From: Escherichia coli
GTDB taxonomy: Bacteria > Pseudomonadota > Gammaproteobacteria > Enterobacterales > Enterobacteriaceae
NCBI RefSeq assembly: GCF_036507355.1
Contig: NZ_AP027877.1
Strand: one strand, 5' to 3'
Length of the DNA: 64,000 nt
In this document: positions 36,944-44,767 of the stretch, in pieces
How positions within the stretch are numbered: position 1 is the first letter of the stretch
How the letters are laid out: each line of letters opens with the position of its first letter
Made by a program: the position numbers and the translations under genes
Notes under the pieces: generated by a model
The model's input: only the letters and a program-made list of their open reading frames with translations
Databases searched by the model: none
Told to the model about the DNA's origin: nothing

Positions 36944-38614
36944 ATGGATAATGCAGAACTCGCCATTGGTATCGATCTCGGTACTACCAATAGTTTAATT
37001 GCCGTCTGGAAAGACGGTGCCGCGCAATTAATTCCAAATAAGTTCGGTGAATATTTAACACCATCCATAATTAGCATGGATGAAAATAATCATATTTTAG
37101 TCGGAAAACCGGCTGTATCACGGCGTACTTCGCATCCGGATAAAACGGCAGCGTTATTTAAACGTGCAATGGGCAGTAATACCAACTGGCGGTTAGGCAG
37201 CGACACATTTAACGCGCCAGAACTGTCCTCTTTGGTATTACGCTCATTAAAAGAAGATGCCGAAGAATTTCTGCAACGTCCGATTAAAGATGTGGTGATC
37301 TCTGTTCCGGCTTATTTCAGCGATGAACAACGCAAGCATACCCGTTTAGCAGCGGAGTTAGCCGGTTTAAATGCAGTTCGCCTGATTAATGAGCCAACGG
37401 CAGCTGCGATGGCGTATGGCCTACATACCCAACAAAATACCCGTTCGCTGGTGTTTGATCTCGGTGGCGGCACGTTTGACGTTACGGTGCTTGAGTACGC
37501 CACGCCGGTGATTGAAGTTCACGCCTCCGCTGGCGACAACTTCCTCGGTGGCGAAGATTTTACCCATATGCTGGTCGATGAGGTTTTAAAACGCGCGGAT
37601 GTCGCCAGGACCACGCTTAACGAGAGTGAACTGGCAGCCTTGTATGCCTGTGTGGAAGCGGCAAAATGTAGCAATCAATCGCTAATGCACATTCGCTGGC
37701 AGTACCAGGATGAAACGCGGGAATGCGAATTTTACGAGAACGAACTGGAAGATTTGTGGTTGCCGCTGCTCAATCGCTTGCGAGTGCCGATTGAACAGGC
37801 GTTGCGCGATGCGCGTCTGAAGCCGAGTCAAATCGACAGTCTGGTGCTGGTTGGCGGCGCGTCACAAATGCCGCTGGTGCAGCGAATCGCCGTGCGTCTG
37901 TTTGGCAAATTACCGTATCAAAGTTACGATCCGAGCACCATTGTCGCGCTGGGCGCAGCAATCCAGGCAGCCTGCCGCTTACGCAGTGAAGATATTGAAG
38001 AAGTGATCCTCACTGATATTTGCCCTTACTCGTTGGGCGTTGAGGTTAACCGTCAGGGCGTTTCCGGCATTTTCTCGCCGATTATTGAACGAAACACCAC
38101 TGTGCCCGTGTCGCGTGTAGAAACTTATTCAACCATGCACCCGGAACAGGATTCAATTACGGTTAACGTCTATCAGGGAGAAAACCACAAAGTTAAAAAC
38201 AACATTCTGGTGGAATCCTTCGATGTGCCGTTGAAGAAAACCGGGGCTTATCAGTCGATTGATATTCGCTTTAGTTATGATATCAACGGGTTGCTTGAAG
38301 TTGACGTGCTTCTGGAAGACGGCAGCGTTAAGTCCAGAGTGATTAACCACAGCCCGGTAACATTGAGCGCGCAGCAGATTGAAGAGAGTCGGACGCGGTT
38401 ATCCGCATTGAAAATTTATCCGCGCGATATGCTCATCAACCGCACCTTTAAGGCCAAACTGGAAGAGTTGTGGGCGCGGGCGCTGGGTGACGAGCGAGAA
38501 GAGATTGGCCGGGTGATCACCGATTTTGATTCGGCGTTGCAGTCAAACGATATGGCCCGCGTCGATGAGGTCAGGCGGCGGGCGAGCGATTATTTAGCCA
38601 TTGAGATCCCATAA
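36944..38614 (+). CDS. hscC: Atypical Hsp70-family chaperone HscC (556 aa)
   Basis: ORF 36944..38614; Hsp70 ATPase signatures IGIDLGTTNS and DLGGGTFDV; shorter than DnaK. Confidence 0.95.
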   Translation: MDNAELAIGIDLGTTNSLIAVWKDGAAQLIPNKFGEYLTPSIISMDENNHILVGKPAVSRRTSHPDKTAALFKRAMGSNTNWRLGSDTFNAPELSSLVLRSLKEDAEEFLQRPIKDVVISVPAYFSDEQRKHTRLAAELAGLNAVRLINEPTAAAMAYGLHTQQNTRSLVFDLGGGTFDVTVLEYATPVIEVHASAGDNFLGGEDFTHMLVDEVLKRADVARTTLNESELAALYACVEAAKCSNQSLMHIRWQYQDETRECEFYENELEDLWLPLLNRLRVPIEQALRDARLKPSQIDSLVLVGGASQMPLVQRIAVRLFGKLPYQSYDPSTIVALGAAIQAACRLRSEDIEEVILTDICPYSLGVEVNRQGVSGIFSPIIERNTTVPVSRVETYSTMHPEQDSITVNVYQGENHKVKNNILVESFDVPLKKTGAYQSIDIRFSYDINGLLEVDVLLEDGSVKSRVINHSPVTLSAQQIEESRTRLSALKIYPRDMLINRTFKAKLEELWARALGDEREEIGRVITDFDSALQSNDMARVDEVRRRASDYLAIEIP

Positions 38615-38622
38615 ACACGGCT

Positions 38623-38655
38623 GCCGGATGCGGCGTAAACGCTGCATCTGGCATC
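38623..38655. repeat. REP element
   Basis: gccggatgcggcgtaaacgctgcatctggcatc. Confidence 0.75.
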
Positions 38656-38673
38656 GGCGCAAAAAACACATCG

Positions 38674-40125
38674 TCAACTAAACAACATCGCGATTTTGCC
38701 GAGAGCATAACCTATCACCAGCACCGTTAAGCTGATTTTGATAATGCTGGTAATGCTCTGTGGTTTTTCATCCTCATCATTTTTTTCTTCATGGTTTTCA
38801 GGTGTTGGCTCATCGACATCTTCATCCTCCGGCTCGAGTTTCACTTTCGTCAACAGCATCCGGGTGATAATGGCCTCTAATGGATGAGCATCTCCACCTT
38901 CCAGCCTTGTATTAAGACGGGCCAGCATCTCTTGTTTCGGAAACGCTTCAAGTACTACCTGTTCCGCTACCCGATACAAATCCAGTAACGGTGAATCTTG
39001 CTCTGTCTCGCTACCGACCCTCGATTTCCACCACGCCCATGCTTTGCGTTTGAAGAATAACGACTCAATAAACGATTGACCTAACGGCGATAGTTTTCCG
39101 CTATGTAAAATTTCCGCCCATAACAGACGCGTCCGGGCGCTCTCACCAGGAACATATTTCAACGGTTTACCTTGCGCATCTACCATGCTCCGTGCTTCGA
39201 TAACCATCACTAATAACGCGAAATAATCCGGGCAATGTTGTGCGCTCCACTGCAACAACAAATTATCGGCTTGTGTAGATGGGTAACTTCCCCAGTACGC
39301 GCAGAGATCGGCAAGCAGGCTTTCCCCCTCGCCGCAGTACAAACGTTGTGCACACTGGTAATACCGGGCATCTTCGCTTTCTGGTTCTTCCGTTTGCCAC
39401 TGTTGGGCAACAGGAATGAGTTCCGCCATACCTGTTTGCACCGAGCTGTACCAGCGCAACAGTTTGCGATGCAACTTCGCATCATCAGGAATTAACCACG
39501 GACCTGCCAACGCCAAAAACGCAGTGACATAGTCAGGATGGTAACGACAGCAACGTTCCAGCGCGAAGTAATACTCAACAGTCTGGTTCTGCAACGCAAT
39601 GGGATATTCCAGAAGGCTAAGGAAATCGAAACAATCACCAGCCTGAATGGCCTCAAGAAAAGCCTCCCTTTCTTCCTCATCCATTCCTACGCTGTCATTA
39701 AACGAATGCCAGTTCAAACGCTCTGCCAGCAAAGAAGCACAATTTAATGAAAGATATCGCGCTTCTATAGCGATTGCACACAGCGGCCAGCGTAATTGAT
39801 CGACATCCTCCATGTTCCAGGTATTTAATTGCTGAATAAATTTCTGCCAGGCGGAAGGCTGAAAACGATCACTTTCTGAATCCAGTAATGTCCTGAATGC
39901 ACGAAGTATTTCATGTTCAGCGGCGGCATCTTTTTCTTCATCATCTGCTTCCTCGACAGGATTTACCGCCAGTCGCAGCGCCTCTTCATAGGCCTGGCGT
40001 AATGCTTTAAACCCCTGCGGATCGGTTTCGGGATGACATAACGGTAAGCGAGCAAAATAAGCCTGGCGGATAATGTCTATTTGCGTCGTGCTTTCAATTT
40101 CGAGGATTTGCCAACATGTTTTCAT
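38674..40125 (-). CDS. djlC: J-domain-like co-chaperone DjlC/YbeV (483 aa) with C-terminal hydrophobic tail
   Basis: ORF 38674..40125; N-terminal J-like segment (...[31 protein letters not shown]), acidic linker, C-terminal TM-like stretch ([19 protein letters not shown]); start overlaps ybeU stop (ATGA). Confidence 0.9.
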
Positions 40126-40829
40126 AGGTCGCTCACATCCTTAAGCGTTACCGGGCATTCAGGCTGGACAGTTAATGGTTGCCAGGGAAGCGTGGCATAG
40201 AAACGATCGCTTCCCGCTGCTAGCTCTTCGAACATATGACTCCTGGCGCTATCGTATTTGTACAGGGTTAGCGCCTCGCGTAGCGAAGTGTTGTCTTCGC
40301 ACTGAGAAGATTGCCAGTAGAGACGCCCTAGTGAATAGGCAGAAAAATAGTGCATCCAGCTGTGATAGTAATGGTGAGCTCGTACATAGACGCGCGATTG
40401 CAGCCATAAACTCTCGTCTTCCGTCAGCCACTTGTTGAGCACACCAACCCGTGATAAAAAACCCATCCGCACATAATCCCAGGCTTTGATTCCCCCTTCC
40501 CCACAACACATAGCGGTTTGGGCAACGAACTGGGTATAAATCAACCCTCTCTCCGAGCCACCAGCAATTAATGCTTTCCACTCTTCAGGGGAAGAGCGAT
40601 GCCATGTCAGATATAAGCCAGCTAAATCATTGGCATGACCATCATCAGTCATCTGATAAATAGTCTGAATTAAATCATCACGATTATTTATTCCCCAGGA
40701 TGATGAGAGATCGAATTCTTTTATCCCGGTATACATTTTTGGCGAGTCATGCGCGGGTTTGCAACCCTGATTAAGTATTTCCATGGGCGCAGAAAGCGCA
40801 AAAAGAAGATATTGTTCTTCCTTATTCAT
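40122..40829 (-). CDS. ybeU: DUF1266-family protein YbeU (235 aa)
   Basis: ORF 40122..40829; paralog of YbeR (shared block [20 protein letters not shown]); translationally coupled to djlC. Confidence 0.9.
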
Positions 40830-40930
40830 TTGTTAATAATCCCTTAAGTGCATTAACTGACTACTTTTTTATTATTGATGAGTATAAACTTGACGCTTTC
40901 AAAATAAAAAGAAAATCGAAACATTCACAC

Positions 40931-41485
40931 ATGAATAAAAAATTAATGTATATATTCGCAATTTTTATAGTTGCAGCAATTACCTGTATTAGCCAACCCA
41001 AGAAAACGACGTTGCGTGATAAAGCCATGGTGAATTATGCCTTTGATTATTTAAGCTCACCGGGCAGTCTTCCATTCACCACGGCAGCCACGGAGCTTTC
41101 CGCGATTCATGGTCACTCAACGTCGCAATATCGCCTTGGAGAATTTTATCTTCATGGTAGCGACGGTAAACCACTGGATTATACACAGGCGAGATACTGG
41201 TATGAGCAATCAGCGGAACAGGAAAATCCACGCGCGCAAAGTAAACTGGGGTGGATCTACCTCAAAGGTCTGGGGGTCAAACCCGACACCCGTAAAGCAA
41301 TTCTCTGGTATAAGGAAGCAGCTGAACAAGGGTATGCTCATGCTCAATATACTTTAGGTTTGATCTACAGAAATGGCTCAGGTATTAATGTTAACCATTA
41401 TGAATCTCAAAAATGGTTAAAACTGGCCGCCAAACAACATTACAAAAATGCGGAAAGATTACTTGCCGGGCTTCCCGCACATTAA
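40931..41485 (+). CDS. ybeT: Sel1-repeat (TPR-like) protein YbeT (184 aa) with N-terminal hydrophobic segment
   Basis: ORF 40931..41485; Sel1-like repeats ([42 protein letters not shown]). Confidence 0.88.
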
Positions 41486-41494
41486 CGTCGACTG

Positions 41495-42922
41495 TCACCC
41501 GAACAGATGGAGTATTTTCCCTATCAAACCAGCAAAGATAAAAATATAGAAAATAATTTTAATGATGCCCAGACAGCCTGGCCCACCATCGTCAACGGGC
41601 ATTGGCTGCGGTTGCGGCTCCGGTTCAACAGTTTGCTTCTCGGTAAAATTCGCCGCCTGAATTAATAATCGACGAATAATTAATGCTTCCAGTGGACAAC
41701 GATTTTCTGCATCAAGACGGCTTACGATCGGCATTAATGATTCTTCTGTTGGTTGGCTGGCCTGCACTAATTGTTTGGCAACTAAATATAATGGCCATAA
41801 GGGATGTTCTGTATCACGCGTGAGTGAGATCCGCGGCTTACGTCCTTTGTGCAAAACCATCTCGACCAGTGAACGCCCCAGAGCAGAGAGTTTTTCATCG
41901 CTGAGTATTTCGTATAAATGAAAACGCGTACGGGCGCTGTCGCCGGGGATATAAAGTAGCGGTTTTCCCTGATCGTTAACCAGTTCACGAGCTTCAATCA
42001 TCATCACCACTAACGGGTAATAATCGACCCGATGCTGACGGCACCATTGCAATATTAAAGCATCCGCCTGGGTGGAGGGATACTCGCGCCAGTAGTCACA
42101 AAGTTCTGCCAGCAAGCTTTCGCCTTCTCCACAATAGACGCGTTGTGCGTATTCATAATAACGCGCATCTTCATTATCAGGTTCAGCTTCCCGCCACGAC
42201 CGGGCGTAATCCAGGAGTTCGGGAATTCCCAGGCGACCTGCGCTATACCAGCGGAGTAAATTTCTGTGCAGTTTTGCATCATCGGGGATAATCACTGCGC
42301 GATGTTGCGCTAAATACAATGTCAGCCATTCTGGATGCGATGACCAAATCCGAGCGAACATTTGGTAAAAATCGATGGTGTCATTTTGCACGGCAACGGG
42401 CAGATGCAGGATGGTCTGGAAGTTAAAAACATTCCCCTTCGCAATGGCATATAAAAAGGATTCCAGTTCTTCTTCGTCTATTTCCCCGACGTTTTCTTCC
42501 TGCAACCACCGCAATCTTTCTGCTAATAACACCACGCACTCGAAGGATAAATGGGCAGTGTTCATGGCTATTGTGCACAGCGACCAGCGTAATTCATCAA
42601 TCTCTTCCATCGAGCAATAATTTAATTGCTGAATGAATCGCTGCCAGGCGGAGGGCAGAAAACGTTCGCTATCAGAGGCAAGTAACGCACGAAAGGCGAG
42701 CAGAATTTCATGTTCTGCTACCTCATATTCTTCTGGTTGCCAAACAGATTTAGCAGGCGACTGCGCAATCCGTAGCGCCTCCTCATACGCCTGACGAAGT
42801 TGTTTAAAACCCTGCGGATCGGTTTCTGGATGAAAGGACGGTAACAGCGCCAGATAAGCGCGGCGGATAATATCGACGTCAGTCGTTTCCTCTATGTTGA
42901 GGATCTTCCAGCAATTTTTCAT
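41495..42922 (-). CDS. djlB: J-domain-like co-chaperone DjlB/YbeS (475 aa) with C-terminal hydrophobic tail
   Basis: ORF 41495..42922; paralog of DjlC with the same N-terminal HPETDPQGF segment and a C-terminal hydrophobic stretch ([22 protein letters not shown]). Confidence 0.9.
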
Positions 42923-43626
42923 AGGTCGCTCATATCCTTAAGCGTTTCCGGGCATGTGGGGTAGTCAGCCAGTGGTTGCCAGGGTAAGGTCGCGTAATAT
43001 GCATCGTCACTGGCAAATAATTGATAAAACATATCATTGCCGGAATCGTCGTATTCTTTACGCGCTAAGAATTCACGTAATAAAGGCAGATTATCATCTT
43101 CGGGAGACTGCCAATATTGCCGACCAAAGGTATAACCGGCAAAGTATTGCCGCCAGTTACTATAATAACGTAGAGCCCGTAGATGAATACGCGACTGGAT
43201 CCATAGACTTTCTTCTTCACTCAACCAGTTATTAAGTACGCCCATTCGACTTAAAAAACCCATCCGGACATAATCCCATGCTTTAATTCCTCCCTCACCA
43301 CAGCATTCGGCTGTGCTGGCGACAAATTGCGCATAAGCCTGACCTTGCTCATTTAATTCAGCAAGATAGTCACGCCATTCACATGGAGAATAACGAAACC
43401 AGCGGTGATAAAACCCTGCCAACCGAGCGGCATGACCGTTATCGATCATTCGGTGAATTGTGCGCAGCAGGTCATCACGGTCATCAATTCCCCAGGAGGA
43501 AGAAAGGTCAAAAAAGCATGTACCTAAATACATTTTGGGGGATGAATGCGAAGGTAAACAGCATTCATTGCGTATTTCCATCGGAGTGGAAAGTGCAAAC
43601 AATATTTTTTGCGACTCCATGTCCAT
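42919..43626 (-). CDS. ybeR: DUF1266-family protein YbeR (235 aa)
   Basis: ORF 42919..43626; paralog of YbeU; stop overlaps the djlB start (ATGA). Confidence 0.9.
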
Positions 43627-43640
43627 ATAATTTATCCTTA

Positions 43641-43659
43641 AACATTCATTTAATGAATG
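43641..43659. promoter_or_regulatory. Perfect 19-bp palindrome in the ybeR/ybeQ divergent promoter region (candidate operator)
   Basis: ACATTCATT-T-AATGAATGT: 9-bp arms, perfect dyad, 15 bp upstream of the ybeR start. Confidence 0.4.
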
Positions 43660-43789
43660 TAAACTACATTAGGAGGCTCATTTATTTATACTTTTCTGAC
43701 ACAACATAATACGCATAAAATAAGACTTACGCAAAAACGGAACACATAAAAATATAATATGTTTTATCTGCAACCATAAGGAAATGATA

Positions 43790-44767
43790 ATGATTTTTAC
43801 GTCAAGTTGCTGCGATAATTTGTCAATAGATGAGATTATCGAACGTGCTGAACAAGGCGATAGTGAGGCTCAATATATTGTTGGGTTTTATTATAATCGC
43901 GATAGCGCAATTGACTCTCCGGACGACGAAAAGGCCTTTTACTGGCTGAAGCTGGCCGCTGAGCAAGGTCATTGTGAAGCACAGTATTCCTTAGGGCAAA
44001 AGTATACCGAGGATAAAAGCCGTCATAAAGATAATGAGCAAGCCATCTTCTGGCTGAAAAAAGCTGCCCTACAAGGCCATACTTTCGCTTCCAACGCCCT
44101 TGGCTGGATACTGGATCGTGGAGAAGACCCCAACTATAAAGAAGCGGTTGCCTGGTATCAGATAGCCGCGGAGAGCGGAATGTCTTATGCGCAAAATAAT
44201 CTTGGGTGGATGTACAGAAATGGCAACGGAGTCGCACAAGACTATACGCTGGCATTTTTCTGGTACAAACAAGCTGCATTACAAGGCCATAGTGACGCGC
44301 AAAACAATCTGGCCGATCTTTATGAAGACGGAAAAGGCGTTGCTCAAAACGAGACACTCGCCGCATTCTGGTATTTGAAAAGCGCACAGCAGGGTAATCG
44401 GCATGCTCAGTTTCAAATTGCATGGGATTATAACGCTGGCGAAGGGGTGGACCAGGACTATAAGCAAGCGATGTACTGGTATCTGAAGGCTGCCGCTCAG
44501 GGGAGCGTCGGCGCTTACGTCAACATCGGTTATATGTATAAACACGGACAAGGCGTTGAGAAAGATTATCAGGCTGCCTTTGAATGGTTTACGAAAGCCG
44601 CTGAATGCAATGACGCCACTGCCTGGTATAACCTGGCCATTATGTATCACTACGGAGAAGGAAGACCTGTCGATCTCCGACAGGCTCTCGACCTGTATCG
44701 TAAAGTTCAGTCATCCGGAACCAGAGATGTCAGTCAGGAAATTCGTGAGACTGAAGATTTACTGTAG
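43790..44767 (+). CDS. ybeQ: Sel1-repeat protein YbeQ (325 aa; ORF is open from ATG 43784)
   Basis: ORF 43784..44767; at least seven Sel1-like repeats (AQYxLGxxYxxGxGV pattern). Confidence 0.88.
   Translation: MIFTSSCCDNLSIDEIIERAEQGDSEAQYIVGFYYNRDSAIDSPDDEKAFYWLKLAAEQGHCEAQYSLGQKYTEDKSRHKDNEQAIFWLKKAALQGHTFASNALGWILDRGEDPNYKEAVAWYQIAAESGMSYAQNNLGWMYRNGNGVAQDYTLAFFWYKQAALQGHSDAQNNLADLYEDGKGVAQNETLAAFWYLKSAQQGNRHAQFQIAWDYNAGEGVDQDYKQAMYWYLKAAAQGSVGAYVNIGYMYKHGQGVEKDYQAAFEWFTKAAECNDATAWYNLAIMYHYGEGRPVDLRQALDLYRKVQSSGTRDVSQEIRETEDLL

Follow-up and report, generated by a model that had tools for sequence, protein, structure and literature searches.

The window, by which we mean the whole stretch of 64,000 nucleotides analysed, contains the rihA-hscC-djlC-ybeU-ybeT-djlB-ybeR-ybeQ-leuS region of Escherichia coli. 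A RefSeq annotation at 99% DNA identity names djlC, djlB and hscC and gives ybeU and ybeR as DUF1266 genes (Table 1). The products of the two J-protein genes are 53% identical over 437 aa. Both genes follow a DUF1266 gene with a 4-nt overlap (ATGA) between the stop of ybeU or ybeR and the start of djlC or djlB, respectively, and the sequence of the two junctions is identical, while the stop of djlC and hscC are 60 bp apart. With ybeQ a second Sel1 / DUF1266 / J-protein module is complete. The Sel1-type repeat families that YbeT matched below threshold were MerG, AlgK, MotX and ExoR. Neither DjlB/DjlC nor DUF1266 is covered by an NCBIfam model, and a PADLOC search for anti-phage defence genes returned nothing for DjlB, DjlC, YbeU, YbeR or HscC. 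A defence role was accordingly discarded, as the two Sel1 proteins gave PADLOC matches that were below threshold and no more than repeat noise.

Table 1. Genes and protein features of the hscC-ybeQ segment, in positions of the window.
Feature	Position	Strand	Basis
hscC, specialised Hsp70 partner, 556 aa	36944..38614	+	ORF; RefSeq
djlC, class C J-domain protein with tail anchor, 483 aa	38674..40125	-	ORF; RefSeq; Pfam; model
DjlC J-domain, residues 1-55, helices I-III	39961..40125	-	Pfam DnaJ 4-47; family profile; model
DjlC HPE triad, residues 31-33, codons CAT CCC GAA	40027..40035	-	Sequence; register from alignments
DjlC all-alpha middle domain, residues 72-427 (DjlB_C_2nd, TPR-like solenoid)	38845..39912	-	High-confidence model helices
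DjlC acidic disordered linker, residues 433-455	38761..38829	-	pLDDT < 50
DjlC C-terminal transmembrane tail, residues 458-483	38677..38754	-	Kyte-Doolittle; model helix 458-482; insertion by experiment (PMC6794478)
ybeU, DUF1266 protein	40122..40829	-	Pfam DUF1266 E 9e-45
ybeT, Sel1/TPR-repeat protein, hydrophobic N-terminus	40931..41485	+	ORF; sub-threshold Sel1-type matches
djlB, djlC paralogue, 475 aa	41495..42922	-	ORF; RefSeq; Pfam
DjlB HPE triad, residues 31-33, codons CAT CCA GAA	42824..42832	-	Sequence; register from phmmer
DjlB C-terminal hydrophobic tail, residues 450-475, predicted tail anchor	41498..41575	-	Kyte-Doolittle
ybeR, DUF1266 protein	42919..43626	-	ORF; 60% identical to YbeU
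ybeQ, Sel1-repeat protein	43784..44767	+	ORF; Sel1-type repeat matches

A preliminary description of this DNA had proposed that both J-proteins read His-Pro-Glu (HPE) where J-domains normally have His-Pro-Asp (HPD). The ORF translations and codons bear this out for DjlC and DjlB alike, and sequence and profile alignments put the HPE on the HPD of known J-proteins. In phmmer comparisons with PDB sequences, the HPE of DjlB lay over the HPD in three J-proteins (C. elegans dnj-12, human DNAJA1, E. coli DnaJ), while NDUEG6 aligned through its HPD with the triads of both DjlB and DjlC. A family profile of the first 70 residues matched E. coli DnaJ (E 1.9e-10) with HPE over H33-P34-D35. The Pfam DnaJ model (PF00226) gave a weak match (E 0.024 for DjlC, 7e-4 for DjlB) of residues 4-47 to model positions 2-51 that spans helices I-III only, helix IV being unmatched. 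The AlphaFold model (pLDDT 87) has helices at residues 4-8, 16-29 and 36-54 and a loop at 30-35, with the triad falling in this loop, which joins helices II and III. Both proteins have a profile-recognisable J-domain fold, with helices II and III and the loop, and depart from the invariant His-Pro-Asp in that loop. HPE is treated as the one triad variant that is tolerated (PMC13254874), so their membership among J-domains is still accepted in the field. They belong to class C, having neither a CxxC nor a CxxCxGxG motif and a G+F fraction of 0.05 in residues 56-120. A genuine HPD elsewhere in the protein would overturn this register and was looked for. DjlC does contain an HPD further on, at 196-198 (RYHPDYV), but this site lies in the all-helical middle domain, reads HPE in DjlB and is unconserved in the family alignment, and we have rejected it as the true triad.

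The triad is remarkably stable. HPE stands from residue 31 in each of the 106 enterobacterial homologues whose sequence covers the N-terminus, so its presence at this position is not due to chance. Further away, among about 100 diverged J-domains from the best 150 of 1,532 matches in a library of 1.84 billion proteins, we counted HPE 86 times, NPE 10 times, RPD three times, KPE, KPD and PPE once each, and HPD never. Within these best 150 matches Glu was present in 86 of 86 His-bearing clusters, down to about 25% identity. Both GAA and GAG were seen at the Glu position, and Asp never occurred together with His. A single third-base change suffices to convert Glu to Asp. Conservation within the DjlB/DjlC family is highest in the J segment, where W5, Y23, P32, E33, P36, G38, F39, R43 and A45 do not vary across 49 diverse sequences. 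What the present analysis adds is that, as judged from these alignments, Glu is fixed across the whole family, and strong purifying selection probably holds it in the DjlB/DjlC lineage. Some lineages have lost the triad His (NPE, RPD, KPE, PPE) and yet adjoin an HscC-type gene, and a Psychrobacter contig carries two tandem KPD proteins with no Hsp70 nearby.

It had also been suggested that this is an adapted J-domain, perhaps specific for HscC rather than DnaK and working at the membrane. Published ATPase, J-domain swap and tail-anchor experiments with DjlC agree with this idea. DjlC alone was able to stimulate the ATPase of HscC, whereas DnaJ, CbpA and HscB were not (Kluck 2002, as summarised in PMC8215388), and reviews quoting the same work state that DjlC stimulates HscC only. 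The J-domain of DnaJ could not be replaced by that of DjlC (PMC1906734), and an hscC deletion and a djlB djlC double deletion are described as having the same Cd2+ sensitivity (PMC8215388). The partnership of DjlB with HscC would follow from its similarity to DjlC. To our knowledge, sensitivity to Cd2+ and to UV are the only phenotypes reported for the HscC system.

These experiments bear directly on another way of looking at the divergent J segment, namely as a degenerate, J-like domain of 'type IV' that has ceased to act through stimulation of an Hsp70 ATPase, in proteins acting as HscC-independent membrane scaffolds. The weak Pfam DnaJ scores, the absence of helix IV in the model, the relatives with NPE, RPD, KPD and PPE triads and the Psychrobacter pair could all be read in this way. 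We find it hardly credible, given the reported stimulation of HscC by DjlC, the equal Cd2+ sensitivity of the two deletions (both from PMC8215388), the conserved adjacency to HscC, and a J segment that is the best conserved part of the family, with its nine invariant residues.

The other part of the original proposal, a hydrophobic tail of about 20 residues behind an acidic linker, holds in full for the tails and in part for the linker. In both proteins the sole strongly hydrophobic segment is the extreme C-terminus. Windows of 19 residues with a mean Kyte-Doolittle value of at least 1.6 start only at 457-465 in DjlC (maximum 1.99) and at 446-457 in DjlB (maximum 2.39), and the next best windows elsewhere reach 1.36 and 1.53, respectively. 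There is thus a single putative TMD, with the hydrophobic windows confined to the last 27 to 30 residues and polar N-termini that show no signal peptide, and in the DjlC model a helix follows the disordered stretch (Table 1). The linker is fully acidic in DjlC (14 D/E versus 5 K/R in 40 residues) but only mildly so in DjlB, where it is Pro/Glu-rich (6 D/E, 3 K/R, 7 P). Every full-length enterobacterial homologue carries the hydrophobic tail, and in distant relatives it is replaced by one to three TM helices or by a DUF805 membrane domain, so membrane attachment is a family trait. For DjlC, genuine tail anchoring in the inner membrane has been demonstrated, with a TMD that is both required for targeting and enough to bring it about (Peschke 2018, as summarised in PMC6794478), and published work has the TMD drive post-translational insertion through SRP, FtsY and YidC with DnaK assisting. 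Both DjlB and DjlC are called tail-anchored in PMC8215388.

For DjlB, membrane insertion would be expected from its 53% identity to DjlC. The experimental evidence covers DjlC only, and a Lys or Arg sits inside the hydrophobic stretch, 6-7 residues from the C-terminus, in DjlB, DjlC and homologues, so one could imagine that DjlB has parted from DjlC in location and is soluble or peripheral. We regard this as very improbable: the tail of DjlB is more hydrophobic than the proven one of DjlC, and neither the enterobacterial homologues, with their universal tails, nor the distant relatives, with TM helices or DUF805 in its place, fit a soluble protein.

As for the helical middle domain between J-domain and linker, PF27158 (DjlB_C_2nd) is recorded on cluster representatives 96% and 53% identical to the DjlC of the window and on distant relatives, while our profile search with Pfam-A did not report it for the DjlB or DjlC of the window, so that the match is by proxy only. 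The 53% identical representative belongs to a DjlB-type cluster. When the DjlC middle domain was compared with the PDB by Foldseek, nothing stronger came up than weak matches of TPR-like kind (best E 0.12, TM about 0.2), and hence no specific relative.

A way to look at the partnership beyond E. coli is to examine the neighbours of distant J-proteins of this kind. We defined HscC-type Hsp70s by the lobe-I deletion, the deletion of the D211 loop and a length of about 560 aa. Such a gene lies directly beside the J-protein gene in 8 of the 10 informative distant contigs, as hscC does beside djlC in the window, and these neighbours are 42-60% identical to HscC versus 34-42% to DnaK. The pairing of a DUF1266 gene with a J-protein gene, of the ybeU/djlC kind, is also found at distant loci. 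The HscC and J-protein module recurs in distant bacteria, with a DUF1266 gene in about half of the loci. One may go further and see in the HPE J-domain the mark of an old cross-phylum module and not a peculiarity of two E. coli paralogues. An HscC-type Hsp70 and a J-protein of the DjlB/DjlC type would make up this module, often joined by a DUF1266 protein through translational coupling. Glu would be obligatory wherever His is present, the proteins with a replaced His (NPE, RPD, KPE, PPE) would still be the only J-domain beside an intact HscC gene, and the DUF1266 protein would be a third component, as client, adaptor or CbpM-like regulator. We put this forward as a tentative and rather doubtful extension.

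Where the specificity for HscC resides can be approached through the DnaJ-DnaK contact residues listed in PMC8215388. HscC shares 33% identity with DnaK. It carries the lobe-I deletion, and the loop with D211 (DnaK 209-212) is missing. It retains DnaK R167, Q378, L391 and P419 (R146, Q341, L356 and P388 in HscC), and DnaK D477 and D481 are replaced by Ser and Asn. Five distant HscC-type neighbours share this pattern of conserved residues, deleted D211 loop and changed Asps, and D481 is mostly Asn in HscC-type proteins. A compensating change of HscC at the residues that bind D35 was looked for and not found, R167 and Q378 being conserved. Since the partners of DnaJ Asp35, this Arg and this Gln, are both still present in HscC, specificity more likely lies elsewhere in the interface, and from the alignments the loss of the helix-II Lys/Arg (DnaJ K26/R27) together with the deleted D211 loop is the more likely source. 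For the same reason the change from Asp to Glu might be functionally silent, and as a specificity determinant in itself it is a candidate only.

The triad could nevertheless be the switch itself, the extra methylene of Glu33 permitting the activation of HscC and blocking that of DnaK. What speaks for this is the retention of Glu in all the His-bearing clusters (86 of 86 among the best 150 of 1,532 matches) with Asp one third-base change away, the HscC-type gene adjoining the J-protein gene in most informative contigs (8 of 10), and the frequent Asn at D481, the ATP-state clamp of R167, which could alter the geometry of the Arg for Glu33. However, R167 and Q378 are unchanged in all the HscC-type proteins examined, the loss of K26/R27 and the deletion of the D211 loop are larger, paired interface changes, HPD and HPE interchange among orthologues of a eukaryotic J-protein (PMC10410713), and a 2026 review calls HPE a tolerated, not a discriminating, replacement (PMC13254874). 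On balance we think such a switch unlikely.

With high confidence, we regard DjlC and DjlB as paralogous class C co-chaperones dedicated to the HscC encoded next to them, by a mechanism of the following kind. Each consists of four parts: a short N-terminal J-domain (helix II, HPE loop, helix III), an all-helical TPR-like domain of about 350 residues, a disordered linker that is acidic or proline-rich, and a single C-terminal TM helix (predicted for DjlB), which would anchor the protein in the inner membrane with the remainder in the cytoplasm. The HPE loop would dock on ATP-bound HscC as HPD does on DnaK, with Glu33 contacting R146 and Q341 of HscC, His31 the linker at L356, and Pro32 P388. 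Partner specificity would come mainly from paired changes in other parts of the interface: K26/R27 of DnaJ becoming F/L24 and A25, a helix III start about 7 residues shorter, the deletion of the HscC loop with DnaK D211, and D477 becoming Ser. HscC would in this way be brought to clients on the cytoplasmic side of the membrane, chosen by the helical domain and possibly by the DUF1266 protein with which the J-protein is translationally coupled.

That DjlB and DjlC have HPE was spelled out in a 2023 PNAS survey (PMC10410713) and is also stated in a 2026 review (PMC13254874); a search for further literature on the HPE motif in J domains found none. HPE, HscC specificity and the tail anchor of DjlC are all already published, so the finding as first stated changes nothing. 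Answers to why Glu is fixed, what HscC does at the membrane and whether the co-transcribed DUF1266 proteins belong to the system would explain how three bacterial Hsp70 systems are insulated from each other, and would test the universality of the HPD mechanism.

Compared with known systems, the genes of the window are those of E. coli DjlC (YbeV) and DjlB (YbeS) (Kluck et al., 2002; Peschke et al., 2018): lengths, HPE, tail anchor and hscC neighbour agree with what has been published on them, and we see no difference beyond allelic variants, the closest cluster representative being 96% identical. With the J-domains of DnaJ, CbpA and DjlA that act on DnaK (PF00226; complex 5NRO) they share the hairpin of helix II, loop and helix III with the triad in the loop, and in the profile alignment R22, Y25, F47, K48 and K51 of DnaJ correspond to R20, Y23, F39, K40 and R43 of DjlC. 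They differ from DnaJ in the Glu for Asp at the third triad position, in F/L24 and A25 for K26/R27, in a spacing from the triad to the helix III Phe that is shorter by about 7 residues, and in having no matched helix IV, G/F region or zinc finger, and DjlC reportedly does not cooperate with DnaK (PMC8215388 and PMC1906734). The pair HscB-HscA is similar in that a specialised Hsp70 has a class C J-protein of its own, the gene for which lies nearby, and that GrpE is not required. HscB, however, is soluble, has HPD and delivers IscU, whereas DjlB/DjlC are membrane-anchored, have HPE and no known client. DjlA has an N-terminal TMD anchor and a C-terminal HPD J-domain and works with DnaK. It resembles DjlB/DjlC in being an inner-membrane J-protein with a cytoplasmic J-domain, and is listed together with them in PMC8215388, but their layout is reversed (N-terminal J-domain, C-terminal tail anchor) and their partner is HscC. 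Finally, in the survey of Malinverni et al. (2023, PMC10410713) HPE J-domains make up about 1% of all J-domain proteins, DjlB and DjlC serving as examples of those without any other annotated domain, and HPE also turns up there in eukaryotic Na/Ca-exchanger-linked J-proteins, unrelated to the HscC system.

The preliminary description had both J-proteins reading HPE in place of the usual HPD, and this is what is found at residues 31-33 of each translation (see the table below). The register of this triad, the three residues at the HPD position of the helix II/III loop, is borne out by alignment. A phmmer search against PDB sequences places the HPE of DjlB on the HPD of dnj-12, DNAJA1 and E. coli DnaJ, and DjlC and DjlB both align there to the J-like subunit NDUEG6. 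The Pfam DnaJ model weakly matches residues 4-47 of both proteins (model positions 2-51), and a profile from 49 family members matches E. coli DnaJ (E 1.9e-10) with HPE over H33-P34-D35; compared with this profile, DnaJ carries seven extra residues ahead of the conserved Phe of helix III. The AlphaFold model (pLDDT 87.4) shows helices at 16-29 and 36-54 with the loop at 30-35. The alternative, a genuine HPD elsewhere in the protein, was considered for the HPD at residues 196-198 of DjlC (window 39538-39546). Since this motif sits in the helical middle domain, reads HPE in DjlB and is unconserved in the family alignment, it is not a hidden J-domain. It could, all the same, mislead motif searches.

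Positions of the J-protein genes, their triads and the gene overlaps in the window
Feature	Position	Strand	Details
djlC	38674-40125	minus	483 aa
DjlC HPE triad, residues 31-33	40027-40035	minus	codons CAT CCC GAA
ybeU/djlC overlap	40122-40125		ybeU stop over djlC start, 4 nt (ATGA)
djlB	41495-42922	minus	475 aa
DjlB HPE triad, residues 31-33	42824-42832	minus	codons CAT CCA GAA
ybeR/djlB overlap	42919-42922		ybeR stop over djlB start, 4 nt (ATGA)

HPE stands at residue 31 in each of the 106 enterobacterial homologues whose sequence covers the N-terminus, within the family signature HPE-x-[DN]-P-x-G-F-x-x-L-R-x-A-Y-E. Searching 1.84 billion representative proteins yielded 1,532 hits, and the J-domains recovered from the best 150 of these contain HPE (86), NPE (10), RPD (3), KPE, KPD and PPE (one each) and no HPD. 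In the members seen, His at the first position is always accompanied by Glu at the third, and Asp at the third by Arg or Lys at the first. Both GAA and GAG are used for the Glu, and His is never paired with Asp. Because a single third-base change would suffice for Asp, yet none accompanies His, the Glu appears to be under selection in the DjlB/DjlC lineage.

Hydrophobic C-terminal tails had also been claimed for both proteins, and Kyte-Doolittle windows of at least 1.6 are indeed confined to the extreme C-terminus of each. The acidic linker described ahead of the tail holds for DjlC, where it is strongly acidic; that of DjlB is only mildly acidic and proline-rich. Beyond the J-domain, the AlphaFold model consists of a disordered stretch (58-68), an all-helical domain (72-427), further disorder (433-455) and a helix (458-482). 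In all full-length enterobacterial homologues the C-terminus is a hydrophobic tail, and a basic residue lies six to seven positions from the end. Structure searches with the DjlC middle domain and with YbeU returned generic helical or TPR-like matches and nothing more specific, and PADLOC and NCBIfam gave nothing for DjlB, DjlC or DUF1266.

More distant relatives vary in their C-terminal halves, which in some contain a DUF805 membrane domain or two to three TM helices and in others long TPR arrays without TM. Three proteins of about 890-930 aa (P0132, P0135 and P0236, at loci L012, L002 and L010) keep the J-domain and the helical second domain DjlB_C_2nd and end in a DUF805 domain with one to three predicted TM helices, not in a single tail anchor. 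Membrane attachment appears to be conserved in the family, and its mode not. A Psychrobacter contig (L008:6001-10232) encodes two tandem J-like family proteins (630 and 772 aa), both KPD, the first with multiple predicted TM segments; no Hsp70 was found within 6 kb. At L013:844-5333, a relative of the HPE type (1,108 aa, rich in TPRs) directly follows a SUKH/SMI1-KNR4 (immunity-protein-like) gene; there was no Hsp70 in the 5 kb downstream, and the upstream sequence spans 2 kb only.

The genes lie in a segment of the E. coli chromosome ordered rihA-hscC-djlC-ybeU-ybeT-djlB-ybeR-ybeQ-ybeL-leuS, in which RefSeq names djlC, djlB and hscC and gives ybeU and ybeR as DUF1266 proteins (Pfam E 9e-45 for YbeU). 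DjlC and DjlB are 53% identical over 437 residues. Next to hscC, the locus (40122-44767) consists of two tandem copies of a module of three genes (ybeT/ybeU/djlC and ybeQ/ybeR/djlB): a Sel1-repeat gene on the plus strand, and on the minus strand a DUF1266 gene and a J-protein gene. The two overlaps share an identical 17-nt junction sequence; a hydrophobic N-terminus is present in YbeT and absent from YbeQ. GC is 41-46% across 40-44 kb and about 51-54% on either side. The region is not universal in the species: of the 5,426 complete E. coli genomes, 4,408 show any match to a 5.5-kb query (38000-43500), with identities mostly of 95-99%, and at least 80% of the region is held by only 3,692.

An HscC-type Hsp70 gene directly adjoins the J-protein gene in eight of the ten informative contigs with relatives 25-35% identical, and in four of these distant contigs the J-protein gene and a DUF1266 gene overlap, in either order. 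These adjacent Hsp70s resemble HscC (42-60% identity) more than DnaK (34-42%) and share the HscC deletions. DUF1266/J-protein overlaps beside such an Hsp70 occur at L002, L005, L010, L012 and L015. The HscC system may include DUF1266 as a third, so far undescribed component; in the literature searched, a single paper mentions DUF1266, and nothing links YbeU or YbeR to HscC. A Sel1-type gene (PF08238) was listed in none of the distant loci. Beside leuS, a Salmonella-like contig (L015:5001-11377) has three DjlB/DjlC-type and two DUF1266 genes in tandem, so that module copy number varies among enterobacteria. Triads without His (NPE, RPD, KPE, PPE) occur at L004:4785-7790, L005:8001-9365, L009:6001-7560, L010:6001-8793 and L014:5001-6287. 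Such family members stand beside an intact HscC-type Hsp70, and no second J-domain was found at these loci. At the PPE-triad locus (L010:4079-6004 and L011:1830-3755), a pspA (PspA/IM30) gene is found upstream of the DUF1266-J-HscC operon, two genes away, which hints at a membrane-stress context.

The HPE and tail observation is confirmed, and every element of it and of its interpretation is already in print. A survey from 2023 covered about 280,000 J-domain proteins and counted 2,921 HPE J-domains (about 1%), with DjlB and DjlC among the examples named (PMC10410713), and a 2026 review describes HPE as the only tolerated replacement of HPD and as present in the HscC-interacting proteins DjlB and DjlC (PMC13254874). 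The proposal of a J-domain adapted to HscC rather than DnaK and working at the membrane is supported by published data on DjlC. [quoted passage not shown] Two other papers report that membrane targeting requires the DjlC TMD, which also suffices for it (PMC6794478), and that the DjlC J-domain cannot substitute for that of DnaJ (PMC1906734). Only the DUF1266-J-HscC module and the His-less triads beside HscC-type genes might repay further work.

A way to view the Glu is to compare the interface with that of DnaK and DnaJ. As the 2021 review summarizes the crystal structure of DnaK with a J-domain, DnaJ D35 bonds DnaK R167 and Q378, H33 bonds the backbone of the linker residue L391, P34 contacts P419, and the basic residues R22, K26, R27, K48 and K51 face E206, D211, E217 and D477 (PMC8215388). 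HscC retains R167, Q378, L391 and P419 as R146, Q341, L356 and P388; it lacks the four-residue loop holding D211, and S and N replace D477 and D481. Five HscC-type proteins encoded beside distant members of the family follow this pattern too. On the J side, R22, K48 and K51 are retained as R20, K40 and R43, and K26/R27 are replaced by F/L24 and A25. The most economical reading of these sequences is that partner specificity would come mainly from the paired losses, of K26/R27 on one side and of the D211 loop and D477 on the other, the Glu having the putative role of a lineage-fixed fine adjustment.
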